Virus record (IMG/VR): IMGVR_UViG_3300017917_002838
Span: 1 to 64,000 of that record
From: a virus
Strand: one strand, 5' to 3'
Length of the DNA: 64,000 bases
Positions 10,357 to 39,027 of the stretch are shown here, piece by piece. Position 1 is the stretch's first letter; the number at the start of each line of letters is the position of its first letter. The notes beneath the pieces were generated by a model. The model was not told the origin of the DNA, ran no database searches, and worked only from the letters and a program-made list of their open reading frames with translations. Both the position numbers and the translations under genes were made by a program.

Positions 10357-11106
10357 TTAAGACCAGTAAGTTACGCTACAATACCCAGAACCACCATTTG
10401 CTCCACCGTTGGAGCCTAAGTTCCAGCCACCACCAGAACCTCCACCACCTGTATTGGCTGTAACGTTTACAAAATTTCCTTGACCTGAACCACTGCTTCC
10501 TGGCATATAAGAACCACCACCGCCGCCACCAAAACCATTTACTCCAACACCAGATATGTTTGCTGCCGTTGAACTGGAGTATGTAATTCCTCCTCCGCCA
10601 CCAGAACTTCCAGTTCCACCAAGAATGCTTAAGGAAACAGAAGTTCCATTAGTTAAAGATATTGCAGATCCACCAGCACCGCCTCCGCCACCAGGTCTTT
10701 CAAAAGAAGTGGAAGCACCTCCTCCACCACCTGAGCCTCCATTACCTCCAGCCTGACTGGTACCGCCTCCAAATCCACCACCTTCTGCTATCAATAATGA
10801 ACCAAAAGAGGAATTGGAACCTTTTGAACCATTTGTATTTGTTCCGCCGCCAGAACCTCCTCCACCAATAGTTACAGTATAAGAAGCACCAGGGGTAACA
10901 GGTAGTGTTCTTTGTAAAACTGCACCTCCTCCTCCACCACCACCACTAAAATTTGTTTGCGCTCCACCACCGCCGCCACCTCCGGCTACAAGAAACACAT
11001 CGACAGTGGTGCAGTTAGATGGAACAGTAAATGTTCCGGTAGATGTAAACTCAGATACTTTCTGACTTAACCCACTAGATGGTAAAGGGAATACATTTAT
11101 CCCCAT
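10357..11106 (-). CDS. Glycine-rich virion (fibre/decoration) protein
   Basis: FTSTGTFTVP..VAGGGGGG...GGSG.C.V.YW. Confidence 0.65.
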   Translation of the reverse strand: MGINVFPLPSSGLSQKVSEFTSTGTFTVPSNCTTVDVFLVAGGGGGGGAQTNFSGGGGGGGAVLQRTLPVTPGASYTVTIGGGGSGGGTNTNGSKGSNSSFGSLLIAEGGGFGGGTSQAGGNGGSGGGGGASTSFERPGGGGGAGGSAISLTNGTSVSLSILGGTGSSGGGGGITYSSSTAANISGVGVNGFGGGGGGSYMPGSSGSGQGNFVNVTANTGGGGSGGGWNLGSNGGANGGSGYCSVTYWS

Positions 11107-13690: not shown

Positions 13691-13734
13691 ATCCCGCCCT
13701 TTCTTGACGTGAAAAATAATTATAGCATTATAGA

Positions 13735-13750
13735 TGTTTCATGTGAAACA
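13735..13750. promoter_or_regulatory. parS-like ParB site
   Basis: TGTTTCATGTGAAACA, 15/16 match to TGTTTCACGTGAAACA, within a 20-bp near-palindrome. Confidence 0.7.
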
Positions 13751-14005
13751 TCGATCTATATTCTAGTCGACTATAATATTCATTTTTAGAAAATGTTAAT
13801 ATATTTTTTATTTGTATGATACCATCCCTGTAAAGCGTGTCCGAATTGGGTAGTGCGCCCATATTGCCCTTTTATTTTGTGAGCCATATCACAAAAAAAG
13901 ATTTCAATTTATACCATATGCCCGAATTTCAGACTTGCGCTTGTCGGGGGTCTATGGTTCACTTAATACATGAACAAGGGACAAGGACTAGAGAAAGGAA
14001 AGAAT

Positions 14006-14982: not shown

Positions 14983-15169
14983 GAGATAACCCATAACCTG
15001 CCACCCGAAAGGGTGGCAAGGCTAAGGGCTAAGGGCTGGGGGGCTCGGTGGATCGCTTACGGGAAATGGTACGATACTCACGGGCAGCTAGCGCCCCCCT
15101 GTAGGTGCGGACTAAATTATTGATTTATGAAGAAGTAAATAAGATCCCTGGCCCGCAGAATAGGGGGCG

Positions 15170-15223
15170 TTTTCCACAGGCTTACGCACAGGTGTGGATA
15201 ACCCTCGAGAAATCTGTGGATAA
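15170..15223. promoter_or_regulatory. DnaA-box cluster
   Basis: TTTTCCACA 15170, TTACGCACA 15182, TGTGGATAA 15193 and 15215. Confidence 0.75.
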
Positions 15224-15534
15224 GCTACGGCGTGTCGCCCACACCGCAAATGTCCGATTTCTCCCAATCCTGCTTACGGGAGTGTCGTAGATCCACTTTG
15301 AAATAGGTGTAAATTTACAGGTTTTTTATTGGGTTTTTTAACACTTAAATTATTGCTATTTTTTACCTATCAAAAAAGCCCAATATTTTCGTGTAACGCA
15401 TTCGGGCGTGTCGAAGGCATGTGAGGCGTATCACAAATTATTTTTCAAGATGCCCGAATTATACGCATTTCTAATTTGATTTTGTCGGTGCGTTCGTGTA
15501 TCTTTGGTATTAGTCAATTAGAAAGAAGGTTCAA

Positions 15535-15744
15535 ATGTCCGCTCTCACATTTTCTCACAAAGGTTTGCTCGTTGGCAAATTCTACCAAGGTTCTCGCGGG
15601 TCTGGAATTATCCAGGAAGCCCAAGATTCAGAGGCTTGGTATGGCAGAGGAATTTCTGCCTATAAAGTTCGCGTTCGTCCTGATTACAAGGGTGATGGAA
15701 TTTATCTCGAAGATTTCTGGGCAACAGTTGCCGTAGAATGTTAG
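15535..15744 (+). CDS. Hypothetical protein, paralog of 14370-14582
   Basis: GAAGG RBS, own promoter. Confidence 0.65.
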   Translation: MSALTFSHKGLLVGKFYQGSRGSGIIQEAQDSEAWYGRGISAYKVRVRPDYKGDGIYLEDFWATVAVEC

Positions 15745-15866
15745 GGGATAACTAACCGAAACGGGGGCAGTTTCGAGAGTGTTCTCGCCCAACGTCGTAA
15801 GTAATAACTCTCACCATTTTTGTCAGCGCCAGATGATACAATTCAGAAATAAACGAAAGGGAAAAA

Positions 15867-16671
15867 ATGAGCCAGATGAAATTATCGTTAGAAAATTTTG
15901 ACGAAATGCTAAACGAAGTTTATGGAGAAATAAATGTTGCGGGCAGTATTTTCACCGCTTCAGATATTCTTAAAAATTGCGATTCTATTGCTTATAGTGT
16001 TTATGCCGCAGATTATTTAAGTTTTGATGAAGAAGAAGGGGAATAAAATGAAAAAATATAAAGTAACCTATGAAACTTTTGTAGAGGCTGAAGATAATCT
16101 TCGTGCCATGTTCAAGGCTAATCATAAATTAGACCCGCTTGGAGATGTTCAGTTTCAGTTTGATGTTGTAGATGTTGAAGAGGTATAAAATGGCAGAGAT
16201 GGAATTTTTTCGTATGGATAGCGAGGGAGCGGGCTGGCTACCGCTCTCTCAAATGAGTAAAGATGAATTTGATGAATTAGAAAAATCAGTTGCGTTTGAG
16301 TTAGAATTTTCCAAATACTTTAGATAAGGGAGAAATAAAAATGGGTAATTTATTAGATGTTATCGGTATCGAATGTATTACATGCGGAACTGCCGGATTT
16401 GTTTTCTATGGTGATGAAGGTATAACAGTTATGCCTTGCGAGTGTGAGGAATAAAAAATGTACACGTTTATAGTTGTATCACTTTCAGTTATTGCTACTC
16501 TAATTGGAGTAGCATTAGCAATTGTATTTTTTGATTTGGAAGAAAATGAAAATTCATAAAAGCATAGTTACAAAGGTTCAAGAGTTGCGTAGAAGTAATG
16601 CAGCTACACCGATCCCGTCTAAAAAAATTTATTCACGAAAGAAAAAACATAGGTTAAAAAAAGAGGAATAA
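15867..16671 (+). CDS. Six mini-ORFs (15867-16046, 16048-16188, 16190-16327, 16341-16454, 16458-16559 membrane, 16546-16671 basic)
   Basis: Tightly packed with purine-rich RBSs, read manually. Confidence 0.6.
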
Positions 16672-16816
16672 ATTCGTGTAACGTAGTCGGGCGTGTCGCG
16701 GCCCCCGCGGGCTTAAAGACTTTGTTACGGAGATCACATTAATTTCACGGGTCTAGGAGTTGCCAATGTCAGTGGCCTGTGTTATCGTTCTCTTACCTGC
16801 TACGAAAGGACTCCAA

Positions 16817-16957
16817 ATGGACGATTTATCTGCTGACCTCTATGGCGACTGGTTCGAGGCTGAGGAATACTCAACCGACGAAGAATATGAGGAGTGGGTC
16901 GATACCGACCTATTCTATGACAATGAACCACCGGCTGATGATATGTGGGGCTTTTAG
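16817..16957 (+). CDS. Highly acidic mini-protein (46 aa)
   Basis: GAAAGGA RBS, own promoter. Confidence 0.65.
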   Translation: MDDLSADLYGDWFEAEEYSTDEEYEEWVDTDLFYDNEPPADDMWGF

Positions 16958-17078
16958 CCCCACTAGGGCCCCGGCGGGCCCCAGTGTGTTGTTACGACAC
17001 GAAAATATTTTAGCCATAAACTTGCGAATGTCGGTTGTTTCTGCTATGGTTCTACCACCAACTACGAAAGGGCCAAAA

Positions 17079-17222
17079 ATGGAAATTTACAACGGCGGCG
17101 AACTCATCGATTTCTCCAACGAGGAGTATTTTGAGGGCATCATCTTTGCTGATGAATGCGATGCGGAGGAGGCTTATTTTGAGTCTCTATGGCTCGAGGA
17201 CCAAGAACAGGAGTGGATATAA
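17079..17222 (+). CDS. Highly acidic mini-protein (47 aa)
   Basis: GAAAGGG RBS, own promoter. Confidence 0.65.
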   Translation: MEIYNGGELIDFSNEEYFEGIIFADECDAEEAYFESLWLEDQEQEWI

Positions 17223-17343
17223 GCCCCTCTGGGGCCCCCGTGGGCTTTTTAATCTTGTTACGGGCATGTGATAATTATCACCGATCTGCAGCTATATTTT
17301 GTCGGTGGCCTCATGTATAATCTAGACTAAGAAAAGGGGAACC

Positions 17344-18060
17344 ATGAAACTAAAACGCTCTAACGATAGGAAGGTAACCAATGCCGTCTCCAAGAATGGA
17401 AAAACACCCGCTATTGCTAATACTTTTGGGCTACCTGCTGGGAAGGATTTCTCATGTCCTGGCGCTACTAGCATCTGCGAAAGTGTCTGCTATGCAGGAA
17501 AACTCGAAAAACTCTACAAGGGAGTAAAAGCCGTACTACTGCATAACTGGGAATTGTTACGCAATGCAGATATGGATACCATGCTACTTTTGATTGATGA
17601 GATGATTGTTGACTTTATTGCAGATTGTGAAAAGAAAAATGCGCCTAAACTCTTCCGTATACACTGGGACGGTGATTTCTTTAATGAAACATATACACAC
17701 GCATGGAGACTAGTAATCATGAACCATCCAGACGTAAAATTCTGGGTCTATACTCGCGTAAAATCTTCTGCCGAGATTCTTCAAGGCTTAGAGAATTTAT
17801 CAGTTTACTATTCTACCGATTCTGAGAATAAAGAAACCGCTCAAGAATTATCTGGTAAAGGCGTAAAACTTGCATACCTTGCAACTACTTTTGCAATGGC
17901 TAAAGAAGATATGCTAAATCTAATTGGAAAATCAGGCGTTAAGTGTCCTGAGAATAATAAAAAGATACCGCTTATTTCTGTAAATGGTTCTGCATGCGTT
18001 ACATGTGGGCAATGCGTATATGAAAGAAACGATATTCTTTTCTCCGCTACTAAAAAATAA
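17344..18060 (+). CDS. GP88-like (radical-SAM-related) protein
   Basis: CPGA..C...CYA, RIH..GDF, YT, C-terminal C..C..C. Confidence 0.7.
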   Translation: MKLKRSNDRKVTNAVSKNGKTPAIANTFGLPAGKDFSCPGATSICESVCYAGKLEKLYKGVKAVLLHNWELLRNADMDTMLLLIDEMIVDFIADCEKKNAPKLFRIHWDGDFFNETYTHAWRLVIMNHPDVKFWVYTRVKSSAEILQGLENLSVYYSTDSENKETAQELSGKGVKLAYLATTFAMAKEDMLNLIGKSGVKCPENNKKIPLISVNGSACVTCGQCVYERNDILFSATKK

Positions 18061-18249
18061 AATAACAAAAACAGTTTTCAATTTCAGTTTTTGATCTTGA
18101 AAATATTTTCAATTTGAAAATTGGGCCCCCATGGGCATTTTGTACCTTTTAAGGCGTGAGATTTATCACACCCGGAAACTGCATCTTGGATTATGCCATG
18201 TCAGTATTAGATGATATAATTTTCGCACAAACAACAAGAAGGGGAAACA

Positions 18250-18543
18250 ATGAAACAACCAACACTACAAGAACTACTAGACGCATGCTCCGATTCTATC
18301 GTTGCTGATGAAATTACAAACGAGGCAAAGACTCTAATCGCAACTCTTCAAGGTTCAGATAATCGTAATCAAATTATCTCAGAATTATTCGAGTATTCTT
18401 CTAGCCTTGCTTCTATGGTACTTACAAATGTACTTCATGTGTTATACACGCACGAACAAGTACAAGAACTAATCAAAGCGCAAGAACAGGCTATGGCCGA
18501 TGAACTAACAAATGAAATATCACAATTCTTAGGGGGTAAATAA
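18250..18543 (+). CDS. Hypothetical protein
   Basis: RBS and own promoter. Confidence 0.65.
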   Translation: MKQPTLQELLDACSDSIVADEITNEAKTLIATLQGSDNRNQIISELFEYSSSLASMVLTNVLHVLYTHEQVQELIKAQEQAMADELTNEISQFLGGK

Positions 18544-18544
18544 T

Positions 18545-18859
18545 ATGGGAAGAAATTTTGCAGAGGCATTATCAAACGTTGAAGGATTAGATATTGAGGA
18601 TGCAATTGCTATGCATCTTCAGTCTAATCACTATCCACCAATTCCAGTTGAAATGGTGACACCATGCATCCAGGCTATTGCTTGCTATAACAATGAATTT
18701 GATATGGATTTGCCTATTGCTCTACCCGAAATTGACGGATTCCAGGTAACTTACAAAGGCAGAACAACTGCACCTGCATGGTCAATTATTGAACAGCATC
18801 ATCTGCATCCATGGCTATATGATTACTATAATGATTATCCAGAAGAGGATGAGGACTAA
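18545..18859 (+). CDS. Hypothetical protein
   Basis: HL.SNHYPP.P, HHL..W. Confidence 0.65.
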   Translation: MGRNFAEALSNVEGLDIEDAIAMHLQSNHYPPIPVEMVTPCIQAIACYNNEFDMDLPIALPEIDGFQVTYKGRTTAPAWSIIEQHHLHPWLYDYYNDYPEEDED

Positions 18860-19079
18860 TGGCAATTTGCGTATCATGTGACGAACAAGGCACTCACGAA
18901 ATTATTGCCAATTCTTTTTATCTTTCAGGAACTTGGTATTGTTGTGCGTGTCTTGGACAATGTAATTGTGAGGATGAAAGCTGATGAAATGTTGGAGTTG
19001 TGATCAAATAATTGATCAAGAAATGGAGGGCTATCACCTGGTTGATGGCTCTCCAACTTGTTGTGAGTGTGAGGACTAA
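18859..19079 (+). CDS. Two Cys-rich mini-ORFs (18859-18984, 18984-19079)
   Basis: CxxC pairs, coupled starts and stops. Confidence 0.55.
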
Positions 19080-19173
19080 GGCCCCCGTGGGCCTAAAAGA
19101 TCTCTTACGACACGATTTGATTAATGTCGGTGCCTTGGTATATAATTCTACTAACTTAAAAGAAAGGGAAAAA

Positions 19174-19425
19174 ATGCTAGATACAACTAACTGGGCAAGA
19201 TACGAGTTTACTATTGGAGGTCTTACTTTTGTTTCGCTTGTAAATCAAGCAGGTACAATTTATCCAAAAGTTTCTATGCTTCCAAGACCAGTTCTTGATG
19301 ACATTAATCGACAAGCAATTCTAAGTTTAGTTGGTAATGTTGAATTTATGACTAGAACAGAAATCCAAGAAAAACTTGCTGAGGCAAACGAGTTCGCAAG
19401 CCAAGCGTTGCTTGAACTGGTCTAA
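19174..19425 (+). CDS. Hypothetical protein
   Basis: GAAAGGG RBS. Confidence 0.65.
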   Translation: MLDTTNWARYEFTIGGLTFVSLVNQAGTIYPKVSMLPRPVLDDINRQAILSLVGNVEFMTRTEIQEKLAEANEFASQALLELV

Positions 19426-19580
19426 TTAATAATAGATAGCGGGTACTTCCCCACCCGCTATCGCCCCCGTGGGCCCAACAACACGCTTACGATCATGTGA
19501 AATTTATCACAGCTTTTGAGCTTGATCTATGTCGGTGGCCTATGCTAGAATATGCTCACAACAAAATAAGGAGGCTAAAA

Positions 19581-19769
19581 ATGGATACACTATCCGTAAA
19601 GACACGACTATATCAGATAGGTGATTTATTTACCACTCTAAAGTCTGGTACTACTGGTGTAATCAAGGAAATCCATAGAACGGGGTCTGGCTCGGCTCGC
19701 GTATTGCTAGATGTTGGCGGTAAAGACCGCTGGACTAGCGTATCGGCTGAAGATTTAGACCTTCGCTAG
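19581..19769 (+). CDS. Hypothetical SH3/KOW-like protein
   Basis: IGD......TGVIKEI pattern; AGGAGG RBS. Confidence 0.6.
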   Translation: MDTLSVKTRLYQIGDLFTTLKSGTTGVIKEIHRTGSGSARVLLDVGGKDRWTSVSAEDLDLR

Positions 19770-19842
19770 TCAATTTGACGACACCTGAGTAAGTGTGATA
19801 AACTGCTCACCAACAAAAACAACAACTATCGAAAGGGAAAAA

Positions 19843-20265
19843 ATGAGTAGAGGCAAAGCGATAAATGTTAAAATCGCTACAAGCAAAGTAATCAAGGCGC
19901 TAGAAACTAAACTAGCGCAAATCAAGAAAACCTATGCTGAGCAAGATGCTCTAGAGGCTAAATACCAAAAGTCTTTAGAAAAGTGGAACAAAGAATTGTT
20001 AGAGTTCGCACTTGCTAATATCAAGAAGGCTAAGAATCTTCGTGTGAATATGCGTAGTTGGGATAAATCGTTAAATGTTGATTTTGATATTCCAACACTT
20101 GATGGAGAGTATCCAAAACAACCACAGCGAGAGTTCGAGCAACTACACACTCACTCATATAACGAGATGGTAGAAGAAATTGAGAACGCAATTCGTATTC
20201 TCAAAATGACCGACGAGGAAGTTGTAAGCACAAGCACATACAACGCAATCGCTCGTTATCTCTAA
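19843..20265 (+). CDS. Hypothetical protein
   Basis: GAAAGGG RBS. Confidence 0.7.
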   Translation: MSRGKAINVKIATSKVIKALETKLAQIKKTYAEQDALEAKYQKSLEKWNKELLEFALANIKKAKNLRVNMRSWDKSLNVDFDIPTLDGEYPKQPQREFEQLHTHSYNEMVEEIENAIRILKMTDEEVVSTSTYNAIARYL

Positions 20266-20393
20266 GTTTCCTATACGCCCCTTTCTGGGGCACACGGGAA
20301 TGAACCTTCCTGAGCAAGAAGCAAAAAGGCTCCCTCACCTAGGCACGTGAAGGCTAAACTGCCTACCATATCCCTACTAGAGAAAGTCAATTA

Positions 20394-20609
20394 ATGACAC
20401 GATTTAAAGTTGAAATCTGGGACGAGATCCCGCAAAATGATATCACCGTTTGGTTAGAAGAGGGCACTGATGCTCGTGGACTGTCTGAAATAGTCTGGTC
20501 CAATTTGAATAAGTTCCAAGGCAATGTAACTGGAGTACTAGTTGACACACTGCATAATAAAAGAAAGTTTGCATGCTACTATCCCATGGAGATTGTCTCA
20601 TCCAGGTAA
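20394..20609 (+). CDS. Hypothetical protein
   Basis: ORF with RBS. Confidence 0.6.
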   Translation: MTRFKVEIWDEIPQNDITVWLEEGTDARGLSEIVWSNLNKFQGNVTGVLVDTLHNKRKFACYYPMEIVSSR

Positions 20610-20746
20610 GAATGCAGCTCCGTACCCCTTTCGGAGCTGCGCCCCCTAGGGCGATATGTCCGTTTTACGATAGCTAAAAAGATCACCAGGCTTGCGAATG
20701 TCAGTCTTATCTGGTATTATTCTCGAATCAACTAAGAAAGGAAAAA

Positions 20747-21754
20747 ATGGCTCACAATCTCGAAACCGAAAATGGCGAAGTTGCTTTTGCTTTGCGGGGC
20801 GCTCCTGCTTGGCACAATCTTGCTAATCGTATTTTCTCAAAAGATGAGGAAGTATCAACTCAACTAATGCTAACAGAGGCTAAACTTTCTAATTGGAATG
20901 TTCGCCTCTCTCCAGTAACCGACCACATTCCTGCTGAATGGAATGATGTATCAGGTTCGCAATATGTTATTCGTACTAATCCATTTAATCAAGGAACTGA
21001 TGTTTTATCTGTTGTCGGTTCTCGATATCAAGTAATTCAGAATGAGGAATTATTTTCATTCGCTGATAATATCCTAGACGGTGATTCTCGTTGTGCTTGG
21101 GAATCTGCTGGCTCCTTAAAGTCAGGCAAGGTTGTATTCGGTTCTCTTACTGTTCCTCGTGAAATGGTATTAGACCCACAAGGCGCTAATGATAAGACTC
21201 AGTTATATCTTATCGTTTGGACATCTCATGACGGTTCTGTTGCTGTTCAAGCAGCGATTACACCAGTTCGTGTAGTTTGCCAAAACACCCTTAATCTTGC
21301 TATGAAGTCTGCTAAGCAGTCATTCAAGATTCGTCACACTCAATCTGCTGATGGAAAGATTCAAGTAGCACGAGAAACTCTTGGATTAACATTTCAATAC
21401 TTTGATGAATTTGAGAAAGAGGCTCAATCTCTATTTTCTCAAAGCATTACTGATGTAGAGTTCTCAAAACTTATTCAGACTATTTATCCAAAGCCTGATA
21501 AAGATACAAAGAATGCTATCACCCGCTGGGAAAATAAGGTTGTTATGCTTGATGACCTTTATCACAATTCCCCGACTAATGCTAATATCAAGGGAACAAA
21601 GTGGGGTGCGTTCAATGCGTTAACCGAGCGTTTGGATTATTACCGAAATGGTAAAGGTTCTAATTCAGATTCTCGTTATGCTTCCGCTTCAGGTTTCGAC
21701 CCTGTTATTACCGCTGAAAAGAATAAGATTCTTCAGGCTGTAAAAGCGTTCTAA
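20747..21754 (+). CDS. DUF932-family phage/plasmid protein
   Basis: PAWH.L, Y..IQN, ESAGSL, SHDGS, TPVRVVC.NTL, GT.WGAFNA.TE. Confidence 0.85.
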   Translation: MAHNLETENGEVAFALRGAPAWHNLANRIFSKDEEVSTQLMLTEAKLSNWNVRLSPVTDHIPAEWNDVSGSQYVIRTNPFNQGTDVLSVVGSRYQVIQNEELFSFADNILDGDSRCAWESAGSLKSGKVVFGSLTVPREMVLDPQGANDKTQLYLIVWTSHDGSVAVQAAITPVRVVCQNTLNLAMKSAKQSFKIRHTQSADGKIQVARETLGLTFQYFDEFEKEAQSLFSQSITDVEFSKLIQTIYPKPDKDTKNAITRWENKVVMLDDLYHNSPTNANIKGTKWGAFNALTERLDYYRNGKGSNSDSRYASASGFDPVITAEKNKILQAVKAF

Positions 21755-21793
21755 TCGCAACACCTGAGCAAGTGTCTAAACTGCTCACCAATT

Positions 21794-21867
21794 GGTTCGT
21801 TAGCTTAGTTGGATAAAGCGCTACCCTGTCACGGTAGAGATCACGGGTTCAAGTCCCGTACGAATCG
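21794..21867 (+). tRNA. tRNA-Asp(GTC)
   Basis: GGTTCGT/ACGAATC acceptor, CTGTCAC loop, GTTCAA; no CCA. Confidence 0.9.
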
Positions 21868-21978
21868 CCCCCTAGGGCCACAAAAATGTGTTACGAATCA
21901 CAAAATATTCCCCCCAAAAAGTAGACAAGTGTCAGTCCGGTAGTGTACAATTCTCCGCATACCAACGAAAGGAAAGAA

Positions 21979-22443
21979 ATGGAACAAACAACAAACAAGT
22001 TTGATAATGTTCAACCTTGGGAAGCAAAAGAGTTTCTTCAGCAACTAGATGAGAAACTAACTATCAAAGACGAAATTATCGTTGATTTAGATAAGCGTGT
22101 TTGGGAATTGAAAGAATCATTAGCAAAGGCTCAGGAAGATACTTCCAAGATTTTCAATAAATTTACTACATTGAAAGAATCTATCTTCTCTCTACTCGAT
22201 AATAATCGTGAGGGAGATGAAATTGAAATTACATTAGACGAGGCTAATGACTTTTTATATGCTAATGGTATTCAAACTATCAAGACTACCTACTCAGTTC
22301 ATTTTACAATTACTGGCGTTCTTGAAATCGAAGCAAGTAATGAAGATGAGGCCGAGCGTGAAGCCAGCGATGTTGATGTATCACATCATATGGGCGAAAT
22401 CACAGAGTTTGACGTTACCATAGATAGCGTGGAACAAGAGTAA
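21979..22443 (+). CDS. Acidic coiled-coil hypothetical protein
   Basis: GAAAGGA RBS. Confidence 0.65.
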   Translation: MEQTTNKFDNVQPWEAKEFLQQLDEKLTIKDEIIVDLDKRVWELKESLAKAQEDTSKIFNKFTTLKESIFSLLDNNREGDEIEITLDEANDFLYANGIQTIKTTYSVHFTITGVLEIEASNEDEAEREASDVDVSHHMGEITEFDVTIDSVEQE

Positions 22444-23034
22444 TGCTATATCAACTACAGGCACCTAACAAGTCCGCTTTCAATTTATCTGTGTTCGAGG
22501 CGGACTTGGCTGGACTAGACCCAGAATATGATACAAAAAACCTAACAATGGAAATTGGAACAGGTAAAGTAGAGAAGGTAAGAAACCTTATCATTAAATA
22601 CAAACTAATGGTATTATTTGAGAAGGAGTACGGATATAGTAATGAAGCATATATCCGAGCAGGCAAAGAAGGAAGAATCCTGAAAGGTGGAGTAAATCTA
22701 CAATGAACTATAAAGAAGGTTATATAGATGGATATAGGCAAGCACGGGAAGATATTGCCGAATCCTTAAGAAAACTTGTAGATGACCTAGATGAGCATTA
22801 TTCTGAACTAGTAGATGACCTAGCAGATAAATTGGAGGCTGGCAGTATATGAGCGAATGGATCGGTTGCGATAAATGTAGTGTTGCTGTTGCTCTTTATC
22901 AAGTTAAAGGAATCGAGGGTGAGTTATTTTTCTGCCACCACCACTTCCAGGAGAACGAAGAAAAATTAAGAACCTGGGCATTTGAAGTAATAGACCTAAA
23001 GGCTGAGGTTTTAGAAGAAGAACCTGTTGTTTGA
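22443..23034 (+). CDS. Three small hypothetical ORFs (22443-22706, 22703-22852, 22849-23034 with CDxC..FCxHH)
   Basis: Coupled ORFs. Confidence 0.6.
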
Positions 23035-23065
23035 CAATAAAATACTGGTCAACTATAATAAAAGA

Positions 23066-23173
23066 ACCAACCGTTAGGTGGAGCTATCAGCTTAATGCGA
23101 GCTAGTTCTTAAATATAGCATTCCCAGTATGCAGCCTAACAGTTACAGGCCCTCTTGATCAGAGGGCCTTTTT
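23066..23173 (+). ncRNA. Candidate structured small RNA
   Basis: TTGACA-N17-TATAAT (23031-23059), no ORF, intrinsic terminator 23147-23173. Confidence 0.6.
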
Positions 23174-23424
23174 AATGCCCACTCGGGCGAATAAATCTTC
23201 TTACGGCCCCCTTGGGCGATATTTCCGATTTATGACAATGTGTTTTAGATCACAGGATTTTGTGTAGACAAATGTCAGTGGTGCGTTATATAATTAGGGC
23301 ATGAACAAATTACCGACAAATTGGCGGAGAATGTCGGAAGCCGACAAAGATGCTTTTATATTGTCATATCATACTGGTAAAATGTTTTGTAATTGCACAA
23401 ACTGTATAAACGAAAGGGAAAATA

Positions 23425-24156
23425 ATGCCAAATTGGGTATTCAATACCTTGACAATTCAAGGTAATAAATCAGAAGTAGATTATATCAAAGATAAACTAA
23501 ATGAACCATTTACTCGTCAATACGATAATTGGAATATGGAAACACAAAAAATGGAAATTCAAGAAACTACCTATAGCAATCCTGTATTTTCATTTTGGAA
23601 TATCGTTCGTCCTACCGACCTCGAATCATATGTAAAACAACCTGAACATTCCACGGGTCAAACAATATCTGAAATCTTTTCAGGTAATGATTGGTATTCT
23701 TGGAATGTAAGAAATTGGGGAACCAAATGGGATGTTGCTGTTAGTGATAATAATAAATATACTGATACGGTATTAGTTGAGCATAAGTCAGAAGGTGAAG
23801 ACCAATGGCTTGTATATAAATTTGATACTGCTTGGTCCCCTCCTGTTTCTGCATTAGAAAGTTTATCTGAATTAGTTCCTAATTGTGTAGTAACTTTAGA
23901 TTGGCAGGAAGAGCAGGGATTTGGTGGACAAATAGAATTTATCCGAGGAGATGTAACTGCTGAATCTGATTATGAATCTAGATGTTATGACTGTGATGCA
24001 ATTGACACAATGGAGTATTGTGAAAATGACTGTGGTCAAATCTGTTCTAAATGTAATAATCTTGGCGAAGCCGACCTAGATTGTGTTGCAGAATGTCAGG
24101 ACCATAAGATATACTTGGAGACCAATGTACCCGATTATAGAAAGGCGGACCTATGA
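23425..24156 (+). CDS. DUF1281/YubB ferredoxin-like protein with Cys-rich tail
   Basis: MPNW, WY.W...NWGTKW, FDTAWSPP. Confidence 0.75.
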   Translation: MPNWVFNTLTIQGNKSEVDYIKDKLNEPFTRQYDNWNMETQKMEIQETTYSNPVFSFWNIVRPTDLESYVKQPEHSTGQTISEIFSGNDWYSWNVRNWGTKWDVAVSDNNKYTDTVLVEHKSEGEDQWLVYKFDTAWSPPVSALESLSELVPNCVVTLDWQEEQGFGGQIEFIRGDVTAESDYESRCYDCDAIDTMEYCENDCGQICSKCNNLGEADLDCVAECQDHKIYLETNVPDYRKADL

Positions 24157-25293
24157 GTTTCTTGGATGAAGAAAACCAGCAAGTTGTAGATTTAATTATT
24201 CAAGAAGTTGCTGAGGCATTATTTGAAGAATGGAATAATGCCAATTTAGATGAAGGCGATCTTTATGCAGATTATCAAATTCTAAATCATGCTGGAAGCA
24301 ATTACTTATATGGCAGATTCAATCAATACTACGATTTGAAACCAGGCGATGAATATTATATTGAATGGGACGAGGAGGCATAATGCTAGGATATACTGAA
24401 AAAGATCTAAACGATATGATTAATGGTGTCCTGGTCTCTTTGGACGCGACAAATCCGGAAGAGACTGATATAATTAGGCAACTAAATATGGCAAACGATT
24501 TCTTACAAGGCCTTTGGGCGGAAGGATATTTTGACTAATGGGAATGTATGACCAATCATGGTGTGTCTCGTGTGGAGCAGGAATGCTCTATACAGAGGAT
24601 GAAAATGTTACATGCTACAGATGTGACCAGGAAGAATATAACAAGCTCGAAACACGAGTATCTAGGTTTATGGAATATATTAAACTATATGTTATTAGTC
24701 TAGAGCAAGACGCAGATAGATTAGAAGAATTAAAACAAAACTTTCAAGGCGACTATGATTCAGAAGAATATGAGAATATAGTTCTTGATGACTACTATAA
24801 TACTGGAGAGCTTATTGCTTCCCGCCATTTATTGTCAGTAGCACAAAATATGATTGGTCAAAAGGAAAGGGAGGAAGTATGAGAGAGCTGAATATAAGTC
24901 CACGTCTACAAAAACTTATAGATAATGGAATCGATTCATTGGATATTATGCACGGTGAGCTTAAGAATCTAATGGTTGAAGCCGAGAAAGAATTAGAGGC
25001 AGCTATAGAGGAAGAAGAGCGTACCGAGGAGGCAATGGATTCCATGGAGCGCAAATATTGGGAGGGCCAGTTAGACGCTCTATCAATTGTTTATTCATTA
25101 ACATACAAACTATCATTTGCAAGAAAGGATTAATATGTACTTAACAAATGAATTCGTTCAACGTGAACTTGCCAGGGCACAACAGCTGCTTTGGGGAAGA
25201 TCTGAGACAGAGAATATCGAAGCTCATAATATCGTAGCTGCATTGCTTGTTGATCTAGAACGGGCGGGCAATAGGGCTTACGGGCTAAATTGA
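24153..25293 (+). CDS. Five mostly acidic hypothetical ORFs (24153-24383, 24383-24538, 24538-24882, 24879-25133, 25135-25293)
   Basis: Coupled ORFs with RBSs. Confidence 0.6.
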
Positions 25294-25361
25294 TGACTTA
25301 CGGTATATTGACAAAATTCACGGGCACGTTATATAATTAACCACCAATAGAAAGGAAAAAA

Positions 25362-25721
25362 ATGGGAGATAGAATAGTTTACTCGATTAAGCAAGATAGC
25401 AATTTGTCTATAAATCTATACAGTCATTGGGGAGGTTATGGACGATTTGAACTTCTTGCTAAGGCTTTAAACAAAGCTAGGCCTAGATGGGATGACACAT
25501 CCTATGCCACCCGCATTATTGTTTCGCAGCTTATAGGAGACGGATGGGATGACGAGACTGGTTTTGGTTTATGGGCCAGCAATGAACATGGTGCATATGG
25601 AGGAGACCATCCAGACATTATTATTAATCTAATTAATAAAACTGTAGAGGATGAAACTGGTGTACATGATTTTGATAAGTTTATCGATTATCATCTATCG
25701 AAGGTAGCTGCTAATGGCTAA
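25362..25721 (+). CDS. Hypothetical protein
   Basis: TTGACA-N18-TATAAT promoter, GAAAGGA RBS, Y.HW.G motif. Confidence 0.7.
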   Translation: MGDRIVYSIKQDSNLSINLYSHWGGYGRFELLAKALNKARPRWDDTSYATRIIVSQLIGDGWDDETGFGLWASNEHGAYGGDHPDIIINLINKTVEDETGVHDFDKFIDYHLSKVAANG

Positions 25722-26046
25722 AAAGAAATTAGATCTATCTGATATTGAACATATTGGAAGTTTTATGGTTGACAGCGGTCAAGCTATTATAGGTGACCCG
25801 TGCTATTTAGATGAATGGAATCCTAACACAAATGATGACTTCGAACCCGAAATATATGCAGGCGAATACGGTTACCTAGGAGCATGTCAAGCAACCCTCT
25901 CAGAAGCTGGAGGAGGCACCATAGGAATGAGCTCTGCAGTTGCAGTGTCAACTGGATGGGGCGACGGTGTCTATCCTGTCTACGTAAGGCGTGGAGAAGA
26001 TGATCGTATTATGCAAGTTATTATAGACTTCGAAGGGGTAATCTAA
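25714..26046 (+). CDS. DUF4241-like protein
   Basis: VDSGQ..IGDPCY, TGWGDG.YPV. Confidence 0.7.
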   Translation: MAKKKLDLSDIEHIGSFMVDSGQAIIGDPCYLDEWNPNTNDDFEPEIYAGEYGYLGACQATLSEAGGGTIGMSSAVAVSTGWGDGVYPVYVRRGEDDRIMQVIIDFEGVI

Positions 26047-26159
26047 GATTCGTAGGGCGGAAAAAATGTCTTACGATCATAACTAAATAATGGCGGGACT
26101 CATATTTACAATACCTGTACAATATGATAAAATTACAGTGTCTATGAAAGGACATAAAA

Positions 26160-26306
26160 ATGACAACAAAGCGAGACTATCTAAAGTCTAAGGGCATCAC
26201 AGTTGGAGCCCGTGGCCGTTTCTCAGGAGCTGCAAAGCAAGCTCTTCAGGAGGCCGCAAAGCAAGGCATTCAGTTCTCTGACGAGAAGTCTTCTGCAAAG
26301 AAGTAA
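26160..26306 (+). CDS. Lsr2-like DNA-binding mini-protein (48 aa)
   Basis: RDYL...GITV.ARGRF resembles the Lsr2 RGR AT-hook domain; not in ORF track. Confidence 0.65.
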   Translation: MTTKRDYLKSKGITVGARGRFSGAAKQALQEAAKQGIQFSDEKSSAKK

Positions 26307-26309
26307 TAA

Positions 26310-26773
26310 ATGCCAGCAATGAAATCCAGGAGGGGTCCTCGTCCAAAGGACCTGGACCTCTCGTGGTCAATTGGATCCAAAGCTATTAATCGGCGGAAGC
26401 TCGAGAAGCAGCGTGAAATAGATCTATATAATAGTTTGTGTGGACCGGTTACGGTCTCATATATTGAACCCAAATTGACAAACCCGAACAGATAGGATAG
26501 GATATCACAATGGCTAAGTCTAAAGATGAAAAGTTGGCGGAACAGTTTATCGAAGCCTTATCCAACCACTATTTTGATACACCAGGATTTGCCAATAAAC
26601 TAGTTACATTTGCTCCACATTATACAATAGATAAACTAGTCCAAGTTATAGAACATATTATTCTATTTGGATATCATAGGCAAAAACAGGATTGGGAGAA
26701 TAATTCAGTAACATCTCCAGGCCTAATCACCCTAAGAGATTGGAAGATTCTCCTAGATGAAAGGAATATATAG
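26310..26773 (+). CDS. Two hypothetical ORFs (26310-26495, 26510-26773)
   Basis: ORF track. Confidence 0.5.
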
Positions 26774-26833
26774 AACCCCTACTTCTATGTGTTCCTAATT
26801 AGGATGTGTTAATTCCCTTTCTTCATCCTAATT

Positions 26834-26869
26834 AATATCCCCCCAAACGTCCTTCGGGGGGATATTTTT
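26834..26869 (+). terminator. Intrinsic terminator closing the island
   Basis: AATATCCCCCC/GGGGGGATATT stem followed by T run. Confidence 0.7.
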
Positions 26870-27326
26870 ATGCCCAAAAATAATTGATCTGATCTACATC
26901 AAATAGCTACGGGCCTATGGGCCCAAATTCGCTTTTACGATCAATATAGATAAATCACTGGAAATATATAGCAATATGTCGACAAATCTATTAAAATATA
27001 TATAGAATATCTCAGAATGTGAGACAAATAGATTAAAATGATCTCAAAATATGAGATTATCTACCAGAATTGTGGGCGAATTGTCCGTTTTACGGGCATA
27101 TTTCCACAAACACTGGCACATATAGAAGGTATATATATGGACAAAATATCACATATTGGACTAAAAATAAGATTATGATCTCATTATATGAGACGCTTTA
27201 TTACCTATATATAAATTTATCGACAATACATAGTATTAGCAAGATAATCCATAGTATGAAATCCTTATGAGTATTCTCTAGAATGGTCTTTAAAATTGAT
27301 ATAAGGCCATTAGAGAGGACGGGGGA

Positions 27327-29027: not shown

Positions 29028-29852
29028 TTATGACCAATAAACTACACGACAAAAACCAGAACCTCCTGAGCCTCCAGCAAAACCTGTTCCTGTGTAATTT
29101 GCACCGGCTCCACCACCACCAGATCCAGTATTTGATGTGGCTGATCCACCGGCAGTACCGACACTAGCAGTTCCGCTTCCAGAAACTCCGCCTACGGTAT
29201 TATTGTGAACAGTTATTGCACCGGCACCACCAGCGCCATAATTAAATATTCCAGGTCCTGGAGCGGAATAATTTGTGGAGTAACTTGAAAAACCACCACT
29301 ACCACCTTGAGAACCGGAGCCACCTGGCATAGCAGTAGTAACTGCTGTAAGATTATTTATTGCTGCCCCACCAGCTCCACCCCCACTACCAGCAGAAACG
29401 TTACCACTACTATTAGAGGCTCCACCGCCACCGCCACAACCACCATCTAATCCAGCAATAACGCCACCATTTTGTGGTCCCCTTGCGCCAGCACCACCTC
29501 CAGTTGCTGTCAATAACGCACCAAAAGTAGAGTTACTTCCGTTAGTTCCATTAGAGCCAGCAGTAGTAGCAGTGCCTCCTGCTCCACCGCCACCAATAGT
29601 TACAGTATAAGAAGAGCCAGAGGTTACTGTGATTGTTCTTAATAGAACACCACCACCGCCTCCACCTCCGCCTGCTAAAGCATAACCACCATTACCACTG
29701 GTTCCAACACCACCTCCGCCACCGCCACCTGCAACCAATAATACTTCAACGGTAGTCACATTGGACGGTACAGTAAAAGTACCAGTAGAAGTAAACTCAG
29801 ATACTTTCTGTGTTACTCCACTAGATGGAGCGGGAAATGTTGCTATACCCAA
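29028..29852 (-). CDS. Glycine-rich virion protein, paralog of 10357-11106
   Basis: QKVSEFTSTGTFTVPSN shared. Confidence 0.65.
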   Translation of the reverse strand: MGIATFPAPSSGVTQKVSEFTSTGTFTVPSNVTTVEVLLVAGGGGGGGVGTSGNGGYALAGGGGGGGGVLLRTITVTSGSSYTVTIGGGGAGGTATTAGSNGTNGSNSTFGALLTATGGGAGARGPQNGGVIAGLDGGCGGGGGASNSSGNVSAGSGGGAGGAAINNLTAVTTAMPGGSGSQGGSGGFSSYSTNYSAPGPGIFNYGAGGAGAITVHNNTVGGVSGSGTASVGTAGGSATSNTGSGGGGAGANYTGTGFAGGSGGSGFCRVVYWS

Positions 29853-30032
29853 TTAATTTTCCTCATTCTGAATTGACGGAAAAAATTCTCCACCATCAAT
29901 TCCGTTATTATAATCCCAACCATTTGTATATTCAATATACTTTTCTGGATTTGAAGCAACTACTTCATCTTCAACTCCAACTATAATATTTATAACTTTA
30001 TTGTTTTCTACTACAGCAAATAATCTTTCCAT
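29853..30032 (-). CDS. Small fibre-associated protein
   Basis: FAVVENNKVINIIV motif. Confidence 0.55.
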   Translation of the reverse strand: MERLFAVVENNKVINIIVGVEDEVVASNPEKYIEYTNGWDYNNGIDGGEFFPSIQNEEN

Positions 30033-30040
30033 AATATCTC

Positions 30041-30607
30041 CTATACCCAATACTCAATGTCAATTTTTCCAGAACCGCCAGCAGTTCCAGATTTATTATA
30101 ACCAGTTCCGCCAGATCCACCAGCGCCAATACTGTATGATATAGAATTTCCTGGTGTAGTAACAACAGTTGATGTTATTACTTGACCTGACTGACCAACT
30201 GCTCCTGGAACTAAATGATATTGTGTAGTAGTATTTCCAAACTGACCAAATGCTCCGCCTCCGCCTCCTCCGGCTTGACCAGTATTTGCCGTTCCTGCTG
30301 GCAAAGCATTGAAAGTTATATTTGCATCATTTGTACCAGAAGTTCCTGCAGTAATTCCTGGTCCACCATTTCCGCCTAAAGCTGAAGTTGCTCCGGTAAA
30401 AGTAGTAGTTCCACCAGTACCACCATCAGTTGTAGCTAATGCACCTCCAGTATTTGTTTTAAGTCCACCGCCACCACCGCCACCACCGTATAAAGTAACA
30501 TTAACATAAGTTACTCCAGCTGGAACAGTCCATGATGTACCGCTTGTTAAAGTTACCCTATAACTAGTTTTTCCACTAGATGGTACGGGAAATGTTGCTA
30601 TACCCAA
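30041..30607 (-). CDS. Glycine-rich virion protein
   Basis: SWTVPAGVT..GGGGGG..GGSG.I.I.Y. Confidence 0.65.
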   Translation of the reverse strand: MGIATFPVPSSGKTSYRVTLTSGTSWTVPAGVTYVNVTLYGGGGGGGGLKTNTGGALATTDGGTGGTTTFTGATSALGGNGGPGITAGTSGTNDANITFNALPAGTANTGQAGGGGGGAFGQFGNTTTQYHLVPGAVGQSGQVITSTVVTTPGNSISYSIGAGGSGGTGYNKSGTAGGSGKIDIEYWV

Positions 30608-30625
30608 TTAACTTAAACCTCCAAA

Positions 30626-30886
30626 TTATTCAGCTGGTACTTCAACTACTGGAGAAACAAATTCATCCTTAGCAGGATCATAAGTCATTCCAATTCCAGC
30701 ATAAGTTCCTCTGAAATTACCATTGTATGATGTTTGTACCCATTGGGTATCTTCACCAAAAAGGGACTTGCAGAAAGCGGTTCCAAGAGCTTCCTGCTCT
30801 TGTCCGTTCTCATCTAAAAGAACCTCGTTTGCTACAACAATAACCTGAGTTACTATATTGTTTTCGATCTTTGCAAAATGTGCCAT
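30626..30886 (-). CDS. Small fibre-associated protein
   Basis: MAHFA..WVQTSYN..FR..YAGIG..YD. Confidence 0.65.
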   Translation of the reverse strand: MAHFAKIENNIVTQVIVVANEVLLDENGQEQEALGTAFCKSLFGEDTQWVQTSYNGNFRGTYAGIGMTYDPAKDEFVSPVVEVPAE

Positions 30887-30992
30887 GTTATTACCTTCCT
30901 TTTATTATATATTTATTATACTATATGTTTAACCTATTACAATTACTCTACCACTACCACCAAAACCACCTGATGCACTACTTCCACCATTT

Positions 30993-31898
30993 TTATACCG
31001 CAATTATAATCACTCCTGAACCGCCAGAACCGGGAGATGCTGTCGCATAAGAACCGCCTCCTCCACCACCCCTATTTGCTTGTCCAGAAACGGCAGCGCT
31101 TGGGCTTGATGTTCCGCCATTTCCACCACCTTCATAAGCATAACCAATACCAGAATATGCAGTTCCGCCTCCGCCACCACCGCAATATCCAATTGATGAA
31201 CCAGTCATTGAATTATAAACTCCGGCTCCGCCTGCACCACCACTACCATTTTGACCAGTACCGCCTGTGCCACTTGGTCCACCACCACCGCCACCAGAAA
31301 AAGTTGAATATGCTGTTCCTCCGCCATATGTTCCTATTGTGCTTTTGCCTGCAAATGTGGAACCACTAACTGCACCAGCTCCACCACCTTGTGCCCCGTC
31401 TCCGCCTCTTGATGCTAGATCACTATCGCTTGAACTATTCATTTTTTTACCACCACCGCCTCCACCACTTGATGAAATATTTCCACCATTTAAAAATGTT
31501 ATTGAAGAAACAGATCCACAAGAAGCTGGTGTTGCAGCTGGACTATTAGATGCGCCAGCACCACCTGCTCCAACAGTTATAGTGTGAGCTCCAACTCCAG
31601 TAGAAGGGATATATAATTGAGAAAAATATATATATTCTCCACCGCCACCGCCTCCACCATTATAACCGCCACCGCCTCCACCACCGCCAACTACTAATAC
31701 TTCTGCAAATCCTCCTTGACCAACAATAATATTACCACTTCCAGTAAAAGTATATATAGTTTTACCATTATAACTAGATACAGATGGAGATCCAATTGTG
31801 CTAGTTATTGTTGCATTACCAACACCAGCAACAGTTGCAGGAACAGTGGAAGGATTTTTATCCGAACGACTTGAATAAGGTATTGAATAACTAGGCAT
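30993..31898 (-). CDS. Glycine-rich virion protein
   Basis: Gly-rich, ends GGSGVII. Confidence 0.65.
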   Translation of the reverse strand: MPSYSIPYSSRSDKNPSTVPATVAGVGNATITSTIGSPSVSSYNGKTIYTFTGSGNIIVGQGGFAEVLVVGGGGGGGGYNGGGGGGGEYIYFSQLYIPSTGVGAHTITVGAGGAGASNSPAATPASCGSVSSITFLNGGNISSSGGGGGGKKMNSSSDSDLASRGGDGAQGGGAGAVSGSTFAGKSTIGTYGGGTAYSTFSGGGGGGPSGTGGTGQNGSGGAGGAGVYNSMTGSSIGYCGGGGGGTAYSGIGYAYEGGGNGGTSSPSAAVSGQANRGGGGGGSYATASPGSGGSGVIIIAV

Positions 31899-32848
31899 TA
31901 TGTATACCACCTAAAAACTACTACTCCGGAACCACCGGCACCAGCTGGCATTGCACCAACAGTACCTGTCTGCACATCGGTGTATCTTCCACCGCCACCG
32001 CCACCTCCGGTGTTTGCAGTTCCAGAACCTGCAGCATTTGTATTATATGGAGACGTAGTAACTGTTTCCCAATTTGCTCCATTTCCTCCTCCGCCAATTC
32101 CACCGTAAGAAACTGGCCCATTTCCATTTGTACATCCGCCACCGCCTCCACCACGAACTACATAAGTTCCAGAAATATCAGAACCTTTACCCGGACCTCC
32201 TTGAGAAACTAATACTGATGTTGAAGCAGAAGTTCTGCGCCCAGATCCATCAACTCCTGAACCACCAGCGCCACCTCCACCGCCGCAATTGGTGTCTCCT
32301 CCATAACCCCACGAACTTTGATTAAAAGAATATCCACCCCTGTTACCTTCGCCAGATGTTCCATTTGCGGGAGTAGTACCGCTTGCGCCATTGCCCATTC
32401 CACCACCCGAGCCACCTACCTGAGCATTTTTACCTGTACTATAACCAGAACCACCACCAGAACAAGATATTGTTGTAAAACCAGTTCCAATTACTGAAGA
32501 ATCAGAACCATTTGTTGGTTGACGATTTGTACCAGCCCCTAAATATTGTCTTCCTTCTAAACCACCACCACCAACTGTTACTGTTAGCGTAGAACCTGGA
32601 ATACAAGTTTGATTTTTAAGCTCTCTATATCCACCAGCTCCTCCGCCTCCGCCTTCAGCAATACCTCCACCTCCACCGCCAGCAACAACTAAAACATCAA
32701 TTAAATTTACTCCAGATGGTACGGTAAAAGTTCCACTTGAATTAAATGTTTGATAATTTGCTGTTGTTGGTATGTTTACAGAAGTTGCTGGTACCGTAGA
32801 CGGCATCCTGTCTGAACGACTTGAATTTGGTATTGAATAACTAGGCAT
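31898..32848 (-). CDS. Glycine-rich virion protein
   Basis: Shares MPSYSIP.SSRSD..PSTVPAT with neighbour. Confidence 0.65.
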   Translation of the reverse strand: MPSYSIPNSSRSDRMPSTVPATSVNIPTTANYQTFNSSGTFTVPSGVNLIDVLVVAGGGGGGIAEGGGGGAGGYRELKNQTCIPGSTLTVTVGGGGLEGRQYLGAGTNRQPTNGSDSSVIGTGFTTISCSGGGSGYSTGKNAQVGGSGGGMGNGASGTTPANGTSGEGNRGGYSFNQSSWGYGGDTNCGGGGGAGGSGVDGSGRRTSASTSVLVSQGGPGKGSDISGTYVVRGGGGGGCTNGNGPVSYGGIGGGGNGANWETVTTSPYNTNAAGSGTANTGGGGGGGRYTDVQTGTVGAMPAGAGGSGVVVFRWYT

Positions 32849-38751: not shown

Positions 38752-39027
38752 ATTTTTGCGGTATCTCCCACAATCCTTGATCATTTACAGGAATGCTTTT
38801 TGCAATCCCCCAGTGATTATTTCTAAACATTCCATGAATATCAAAAAAGCCTAGAGGAGTTTTTCTCCATATTATTAGAGAATACCCGTCCCAAAATGCC
38901 TCTTGTTGATAAGTTTTAAAATTTTTTATAAACTTATCAACTTCATGTTCAGTTATATTTATAGACATTTGCTTATAACAAAAGCCTAGATAAGTATTAT
39001 ACTACTTTAACCTAGGCTTTGTCAACA

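Follow-up and report, generated by a model that had tools for sequence, protein, structure and literature searches.

T4-type phages carry PeSL (promoter-early stem-loop) cassettes, reportedly described by Arbiol, Comeau, Krisch and colleagues in 2010. A PeSL consists of a sigma-70 promoter and a terminator, and recombination between copies has reportedly been demonstrated. The late-promoter activator sites of phages P2, P4 and 186 have the form TGT-N12-ACA, lie at approximately −55 and are bound by Ogr, Delta or B. The repressor of Cluster A mycobacteriophages (L5 gp71, TipsytheTRex) is a monomer with two DNA-binding domains that reads oriented, asymmetric sites in promoters and in short intergenic gaps (PMC9283540). 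Here we describe a bipartite element, GGGC-N12-TTACG, that recurs in a block of small genes in IMG/VR virus record IMGVR_UViG_3300017917_002838. The record is a complete virus genome of 104,555 bp (104.5 kb), and the window that we analyzed is its first 64 kb. Among documented mechanisms, the operator/stoperator system of the Cluster A phages is the closest to this element, which we tentatively read as a protein-binding site.

The element is confined to an island (13.7–27.3 kb) that is nearly the sole + strand gene block of the genome and has a G+C content of 39.4%, as compared with 35.2% elsewhere. The window contains 14 exact matches to GGGC-N12-TTACG, all on the + strand, between 15041 and 27094; shuffled sequences, which give the chance expectation, contained 0.20 matches on average and never more than 2. 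In the whole genome, the identical 14 forward matches were found, with none in reverse and none for a backwards control. When spacers from N6 to N19 were scanned across the genome, 14 copies appeared at N12 and at most one at every other length. Two further copies carry one mismatch, at 18133 (TTAAG) and 23214 (TTATG). This genome-wide scan of both strands confirmed the original prediction of 14 exact and two one-mismatch copies with a fixed 12-nucleotide (nt) spacer on the + strand only, and the claim that no copy lies outside the island was borne out over all 104,555 bp. The spacer sequences are unrelated among all 14 copies and constant only in length; the bases 3′ of GGGC are mostly A-rich or mixed, and the base preceding TTACG varies, with no constant G. 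All ten genomic occurrences of the palindrome GCCC-N4-GGGC are within the island, where they precede eight exact and both mismatch copies, and a GGGC-N4-GGGC form is present at 15033, 25274 and 26911. The GCCC-N4 arm had been proposed as an optional part of the element; ten copies do carry it, but it does not belong to the core, being absent from relatives and from the right-hand copies.

Each cassette of the island has its own promoter, mostly of the PafBC type described below and often with a CRP-like box between it and the element. Alignment of the modules of the genome (n = 9) revealed invariant blocks amid variable sequence. From 5′ to 3′, a module reads GCCCC-N3-GGGC, the 12-nt spacer, TTA(C)G, 15–38 variable nt, TGTC(A/G)GT, N9, TAnnnT and a leader, and the shared leader ends with GAAAGG followed by ATG. 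In several copies, a CRP-like TGTGA-N6-TCACA lies exactly 4 nt past TTACG. The promoter part (TGTCRG-N10-TAnnnT) equals the published PafBC motif, tGTCgg(N10)tA(N3)T, a −26 element without a −35 (PMC8635444), and 13 of the 14 forward genome matches to the PafBC-type pattern fall in the island. The element is the most upstream conserved piece of the module and separates the next promoter from the unit that ends before it. The individual copies, including degenerate ones, are the following (window coordinates):

15033..15061, + strand: copy 1, GGGC-N4-GGGC-N12-TTACG; follows a terminator-like hairpin (15000–15022) and a short GGGCTAA repeat
15165..15187, + strand: degenerate N13 variant with the DnaA-box-like TTTTCCACA as its spacer, the form of the commonest copies in relatives
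16701..16729, + strand: copy 2, GCCC-N4-GGGC-N12-TTACG; a PafBC-type box begins 37 nt past TTACG
16968..16996, + strand: copy 3, with palindrome; a PafBC-type box begins 32 nt past TTACG
17234..17262, + strand: copy 4, with palindrome; CRP-like TGTGA-N6-TCAC at 4 nt and PafBC box at 37 nt past TTACG; heads the GP88 cassette
18125..18153, + strand: palindrome present, one mismatch (TTAAG); a PafBC-type promoter follows at 18199
19081..19109, + strand: copy 5, with palindrome; 1 nt 3′ of a stop codon; proximal geometry, PafBC box 15 nt past TTACG
19463..19491, + strand: copy 6, with palindrome; directly 3′ of a strong hairpin; CRP-like box at 4 nt and PafBC box at 38 nt past TTACG
20641..20669, + strand: copy 7, with palindrome; directly 3′ of a strong hairpin; heads the DUF932 gene; has an ortholog in at least 64 of 80 related loci
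21867..21895, + strand: copy 8, with palindrome; abuts the 3′ end of tRNA-Asp; TTACG lies within a CRP-like TGTGT-N6-TCACA
23177..23205, + strand: copy 9, with palindrome; after a canonical terminator (23147–23169) and T run; first of the tandem pair 23185/23214
23206..23234, + strand: palindrome present, one mismatch (TTATG); later member of the tandem pair; CRP-like box 4 nt and PafBC box 38 nt after
25262..25302, + strand: two overlapping tandem copies (25262 and 25282) without a hairpin; the second TTACG lies 5 nt before a perfect TTGACA-N18-TATAAT; proximal geometry
26055..26075, + strand: copy without a hairpin; the Lsr2-like gene (26160–26306) has its promoter downstream of it
26911..26939, + strand: copy of the GGGC-N4-GGGC form, at the right end of the island in non-coding DNA; alone among the copies here in retaining a box3-like sequence, TCACTGGAAAT
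27074..27094, + strand: last copy; lies where the island and the minus-strand genes converge, in non-coding DNA

The placements noted originally, namely next to the stop codon (19081), the hairpins (19463 and 20641) and tRNA-Asp (21867), and in tandem pairs, proved correct. The GGGCTAA 7-mer forms a short tandem repeat directly 5′ of the first copy both in the window (15016–15040) and in the closest relative, L019 (~5125–5155).

Conservation was examined in 80 IMG/VR loci that encode DUF932 proteins 78–87% identical to that of the source genome. In these loci the exact GGGC form occurs 157 times in the forward and once in the reverse orientation, and each of the complete relatives (n = 5) has three to four exact GGGC copies, all on one strand and clustered at the right end of the island. 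Apparent N6, N9 and N10 variants all read GGGG in the N12 register, and the family-wide motif is GGG-N13-TTACG (core GGG(S)-N12-TTACG), with 469 forward versus 15 reverse matches and six to ten mostly intergenic copies per island. Spacer length, on which the original prediction had staked its refutation, is therefore kept in relatives, together with the strand bias. Among 894 forward TTACG sites in the relatives, 469 have GGG 16 nt upstream. Only 15% of the unique copies fall in mechanically called open reading frames (ORFs), although these ORFs cover 67% of the region. The copies are orthologous across relatives, the one before DUF932 being present in at least 64 of the 80 loci. The fourth base is position-specific along the island in relatives, G G G (A/T) C C C, a pattern common to their genomes; in the source genome it is C in 14 of 14 copies. 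The spacer is free in sequence, being A-rich in right-hand copies and of other sequence elsewhere. In more than 130 copies of the relatives the spacer is a DnaA box (GGGg-TTATCCACA-ggs-TTACG), and a second DnaA box frequently lies just past TTACG. We conclude that the motif is real, strongly non-random and conserved across the phage lineage. The window also holds three DnaA-box-like 9-mers (TTTTCCACA and two of TGTGGATAA) at 15165–15225, non-coding and downstream of the first copy; in relatives, unlike in this cluster, DnaA boxes fill the motif spacers.

The relatives carry a third box (CCCTGRAA; consensus aaAa-CCC-n-GAAatt) 15–17 nt past TTACG, and there the CRP-like box is found at 25–27 nt past TTACG, as compared with 4 nt in the source genome. 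The third box has been lost from the source genome (0 matches to CCCTGRA in its island), a natural two-box variant in which approximately 21–22 nt including the third box are missing and the hairpin is shortened to GCCC-N4-GGGC. Despite this loss, 14 of 14 two-box copies are kept, which indicates that the two-box unit works, or at least persists, without the third box. Three ORFs (L024:11237-11923, L028:6469-6657 and L028:6263-6469) are present in 66–76 of the 80 relatives and missing from the source genome. None of the three matches any Pfam family, and they are candidate partners of the third box only, not of the two-box site. Long-range pairing of GGGS with the CCC of the third box was considered and rejected, as the fourth base does not covary (judged by eye). 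The exact hairpin-plus-motif pattern gave only nine single, chance-like matches in IMG/VR. In relatives, the copy after DUF932/tRNA (e.g., L075:11151) reads GTGTTACGACTCACA, a CRP-like palindrome centered on TTACG. It contains the 10-mer TACGACTCAC, which is also present in the T7 promoter. This resemblance is limited to one orthologous copy and is probably a coincidence arising from the CRP-like palindrome around TTACG.

The interpretation that we favor is that GGG(S)-N12-TTACG functions autonomously, as an asymmetric site at which a protein binds double-stranded DNA, and we put the probability of this reading at roughly 0.45. About half of the copies lack a hairpin and still keep GGG, the spacing and TTACG, which argues that the DNA sequence itself is read. 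One putative factor would contact both short blocks, whose centers lie ~16 bp apart, and might be either a small complex or a monomer in which two parts bind DNA. The site would form the upstream edge of modules composed of a terminator, the upstream site, in some cases a CRP-like box, a promoter and a leader, and the factor would give the whole early-type block one common control input. As an operator or roadblock, the site could shut cassettes off or insulate them from one another; alternatively, it could boost the adjacent promoters. The factor would probably be specific to the phage lineage rather than a general host regulator. The three-box pattern gave four matches versus four for the control in 401 Actinomycetota genomes, among which the true host may be unsampled, and this lack of enrichment argues against a copied host regulon site. 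The DnaA-box form had one unrelated match in the genome collection, and the two-box form is too short for such a scan.

The suggestion that one protein reads two half-sites was part of the original prediction, and the spacing, free spacer, orientation and conservation fit it, but the binder itself was not found. Among approximately 60 proteins searched against Pfam and PHROGs, only WhiB, the Lsr2-like domain, a 48-amino-acid helix-turn-helix (HTH) peptide and DUF7455 are conceivable binders, and none could be linked to the site. The HTH peptide (51193–51339) is weakly similar to sigma region 4. A search for a T7-type RNA polymerase gave no match, but its control matched no genome either. No homolog of L5 gp71 was detected by tblastn against the whole genome (best E value 3.2).

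The position of the element bears on how such a site could act. In a proximal class, TTACG lies 5–7 nt before the −35 hexamer (25282 here, and 33 unique copies in relatives at 6–7 nt). With this geometry, at 25282 and at 19089, where the PafBC box is 15 nt away, TTACG falls at approximately −46 and GGG at approximately −62. These are the positions of UP elements and class I activator sites. The range of such sites (−40 to −65) fits the proximal class, but most copies have TTACG 29–108 nt from the PafBC box. In the non-proximal modules, extra boxes (CRP-like, DnaA) are inserted and the element is located further upstream.

Several points weigh against a protein-binding site. The core promoter lies at no fixed distance from the element (15–38 nt here and 34–108 nt in relatives), and the element is not cleanly phased with the helix relative to the promoter. 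The conserved proteins of the island have no recognizable DNA-binding domain. In left-hand copies GGG merges into a hairpin whose arms show some compensatory changes, which makes a role at the RNA level conceivable for part of the element. Finally, the evidence is entirely comparative, so that binding by a protein, which protein it would be and the sign of its effect are matters of inference. The variable, unphased distance argues against a classical activator that contacts RNA polymerase, and the geometry fits an operator, insulator or architectural site better. Helical phasing relative to the PafBC box was also tried as a criterion and discarded, given that the clusters at 35, 46, 74, 80 and 89 nt do not fall on one face and are confounded by orthology.

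A more specific version of the protein-binding site can be envisioned, in which the element is a new, lineage-specific operator of lytic actinophages. A factor without detectable similarity to the L5 repressor would read GGG and TTACG 16 bp apart in a single orientation and insulate or shut off early cassettes with PafBC-, CRP- and DnaA-dependent promoters, the free spacer serving as a slot for host-factor sites such as DnaA boxes. In this full form the proposal is doubtful. A stoperator-like roadblock had been offered originally as well; it is still a possible role, but an L5-type repressor is absent and the sites are limited to one gene block.

One could alternatively imagine that the element is a factor-dependent promoter, in which TTACG is a −35-like and the third box (CCCTGRAAT) a −10-like element, so that each cassette would have a second, differently timed promoter resembling tandem early/middle promoters. 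The position of the third box, tightly 15–17 nt past TTACG in relatives, is roughly that of a promoter; in right-hand copies it coincides with the −35 hexamer and promoter spacer, followed by TATAAT, and in L019 its place is taken by a PafBC-like TGTCCC-N10-TAGAAT. We think nonetheless that this is unlikely. The third box is absent from the source genome, yet all copies there keep GGGC-N12-TTACG; there is no conserved block between TTACG and the PafBC box, no consistent −10-like hexamer 16–19 nt past TTACG, and no match to sigma region 2 in the phage genome. Moreover, group-1 sigma factors need an A at position 2 of the −10 element, which the hexamer TGRAAT of the third box does not have. Two related arrangements were rejected. 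Were GGGC the −35 and TTACG the −10, their 12-nt spacer would fall short of the 15–20 nt that part such boxes. An extracytoplasmic function (ECF)-like promoter on the minus strand (GGG-N16-CGTAA in relatives) would have a spacing ~3 nt too short and an antisense direction.

We likewise see only a small chance that the element acts at the RNA level at the ends of transcription units, where the GC hairpin and UUACG would be a factor-assisted terminator, a 3′-end stabilizer or a processing site that insulates cassettes. In relatives, 50% of the unique copies have a stem of at least 4 bp whose 3′ arm is the GGG, as compared with 23% of all GGG sites; compensatory changes are seen in the arms (CCCGCA/TGCGGG, CCCTCA/TGAGGG and CCCAT/ATGGG), and the element is always downstream of a gene end and oriented with transcription. 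However, approximately half of the copies form no hairpin while the GGG-TTACG register stays constant, and the constancy is counted from GGG, not from the hairpin foot, which is 10–13 nt from TTACG. Many of the orthologous hairpins have only 3 bp and 10-nt loops, and several copies come immediately after another, strong hairpin, itself already terminator-like. A T run follows just one copy, and an intrinsic terminator with a GC stem and U tract was found by the terminator scan only at 17231–17248. We read the hairpin as a putative accessory structure of the transcript end, with a G run common to it and the DNA site. A pause site (hairpin followed by Y-G) was rejected, the hairpin foot being 16–17 nt from CG and not 11–12.

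A recombination boundary for cassette shuffling, as proposed in the original prediction, would involve either a site-specific enzyme or homologous exchange between repeated heads, as in the T4-type PeSLs. Gene content and order do differ among relatives, several cassettes are unique to the source genome, the element sits at cassette boundaries, and the phage encodes RecA and a RuvC-like protein. We nevertheless regard this explanation as improbable. No tyrosine or serine recombinase and no Y1 transposase were detected in the genome in searches whose controls matched. An integron attC site would call for an IntI-type tyrosine recombinase and for promoterless cassettes closed by an R''/R' inverted repeat that carries GTTRRRY, and no Phage_integrase match was obtained (the control matched 14/14 genomes), while the cassettes have their own promoters; an IS200/IS605 or repetitive extragenic palindromic (REP)-type hairpin is similarly disfavored by the lack of a Y1_Tnp match in the genome. 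The copies are stably orthologous, and a comparison of related loci with one another, at 92% identity or more, gave 28 indels or replacements (~12 distinct, a small sample), all of them at least ~290 nt from any copy, so that the expectation of breakpoints at the element failed. The ends of blastn matches are about two-fold enriched between −40 and +20 of copies, but this is expected of more divergent intergenic DNA. The fourth base, C in every copy, and the GCCCC-N3-GGGC head shared by ten copies, unlike the position-specific G/T/C pattern of relatives, hint at homogenization, which RecA-helped homologous exchange between heads may have brought about here; the similarity of heads within the genome exceeds the permuted value only marginally (0.364 versus 0.353).

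Finally, a replication, packaging or DNA-entry signal, made up of iteron-like sites near DnaA boxes or of sites near a genome end, is highly improbable. In its favor, all complete relatives have a cluster of three copies where the island ends in AT-rich, non-coding DNA, many spacers are occupied by DnaA boxes, and DUF932 lies in the terminal repeat of BE phages, at two places per record. Yet most copies stand singly before promoters over 12 kb and not in an array, neighboring copies are irregularly spaced (20 to 57 nt), the BE phage Jay2Jay lacks GGG-N13-TTACG, the 99-bp terminal overlap of our record is an assembly overlap only and says nothing of the physical genome ends, and none of the tests run supports the packaging or DNA-entry signal suggested originally.

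The genome around the element is that of a phage whose DnaE-type polymerase is 59% identical to those of Streptomyces BE/BK phages and which also encodes DnaB, a DnaG-like primase, RecA, a RuvC-like protein, WhiB, a class II ribonucleotide reductase and six tRNAs; an Rfam scan detected tRNAs only. No near-identical DNA was found in cultured phages. The island encodes approximately 40 small proteins, several of them Cys-rich and almost all without a known family. The families recognized are GP88, DUF932, DUF7455, an Api92-like domain, DUF4241 and an Lsr2-like domain of 48 amino acids. The last is a protein (26160–26306) that consists only of the DNA-binding domain (phrog_6269, E value 2e-9), and in relatives, as in the source genome, a copy of the element stands at the head of its promoter. 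Because the homologous DUF932 and Lsr2-like genes of Streptomyces BE phages lie inside the long terminal repeat, the island is probably an early, perhaps first-entering, region. The minus strand encodes WhiB (38443–38784), RecA (54654–55652) and a ferritin/Dps-like protein (45651–46109), as well as five paralogous Gly_rich_2 domain proteins, probably tail-fiber-like (29028–32848 and 10357–11106).

Other repeats were noticed in and next to the island. A palindrome, GATGTTTCATGTGAAACATC, marks its left, divergent edge (13733–13752); it is one mismatch from the actinobacterial parS consensus. In relatives L024 (~1020) and L031 (~1000) the same palindrome directly precedes a motif copy. A second repeated unit, TTCGTGTAACG-N5-CGGGCGTGTCG, is present in two copies (15372–15413 and 16657–16698) that are 83% identical. 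The sequence GGCGTGTCG occurs three times, always forward and in the island, and may be a PafBC-like half site; the modules of relatives often contain CGACACGCC, its reverse complement. At 26990–27200, in the AT-rich non-coding convergent junction, three TCTCA-N6-TGAGA palindromes are interleaved with the last two copies of the element and may be operators or an origin. Relatives have other, lineage-specific palindromes at this position.

Phages of this kind are abundant in lakes, where they infect uncultured actinobacteria, and in their early block, uncharacterized small genes are densely packed and have promoters of the type used in the host DNA-damage response (PafBC). An oriented two-box site at the heads of the units offers a handle on the co-regulation or insulation of the block and a bait sequence for isolating its binding protein, and the source genome, as a natural deletion variant, separates the two-box site from the third box. 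What is described here is a regulatory detail of one phage lineage; only a novel binding factor would make it a new kind of biology.

How, then, does the element compare with the systems introduced above? Cluster A stoperators are, as here, numerous asymmetric sites oriented with transcription in promoters and short gaps. They are, however, contiguous 13-mers distributed genome-wide in temperate phages, whereas the element has two parts of three to four and five bases around a free 12-nt spacer and is limited to one block. Cluster A phages encode an L5 gp71-type repressor and are temperate; our phage has no gp71 homolog (tblastn E > 3) and no integrase. The T4-type PeSLs resemble the modules in being compact, repeated units of a stem-loop and a promoter between small, non-essential genes in a plastic region. 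PeSL promoters are of the sigma-70 type, whereas those of the island are PafBC-type with the two-box site separate and upstream, and PeSLs recombine at the units, whereas recent indels here do not map to copies (0/28). The P2/P4/186 sites share with the element two blocks, a free 12-nt spacer, a place before each operon and, in the proximal geometry, a position near −55; the P2 site is a dyad with a known activator, in contrast to the asymmetric element, which is often further upstream and for which no activator was found, although the island has several small Cys-rich proteins. Streptomyces BE phage Jay2Jay has a homologous block (DUF932, Lsr2-like) with the same layout of hairpin, box and promoter (TAGACT-type −10), but its box is the palindrome GTCCG-N3-CGGACA, and a regular expression search found neither GGG-N13-TTACG nor a PafBC-type box in it. 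In the Jay2Jay locus L099 (1–11 kb), the intergenic modules among the terminal-repeat genes read hairpin, GTCCG-N3-CGGACA and a promoter with a TAGACT −10; the words TGTCCG/CGGACA also occur in several motif spacers of the window (20657 and 27082). The comparison shows the slot between terminator and promoter to be a conserved design feature of the phage group, filled by a lineage-specific box. Culturable Streptomyces BE phages, with a differently worded box in the same place, are a tractable system in which to study the principle. Taken together, the element most likely belongs to the kind of regulatory site that is repeated in phage early regions and is not a site for gene shuffling.

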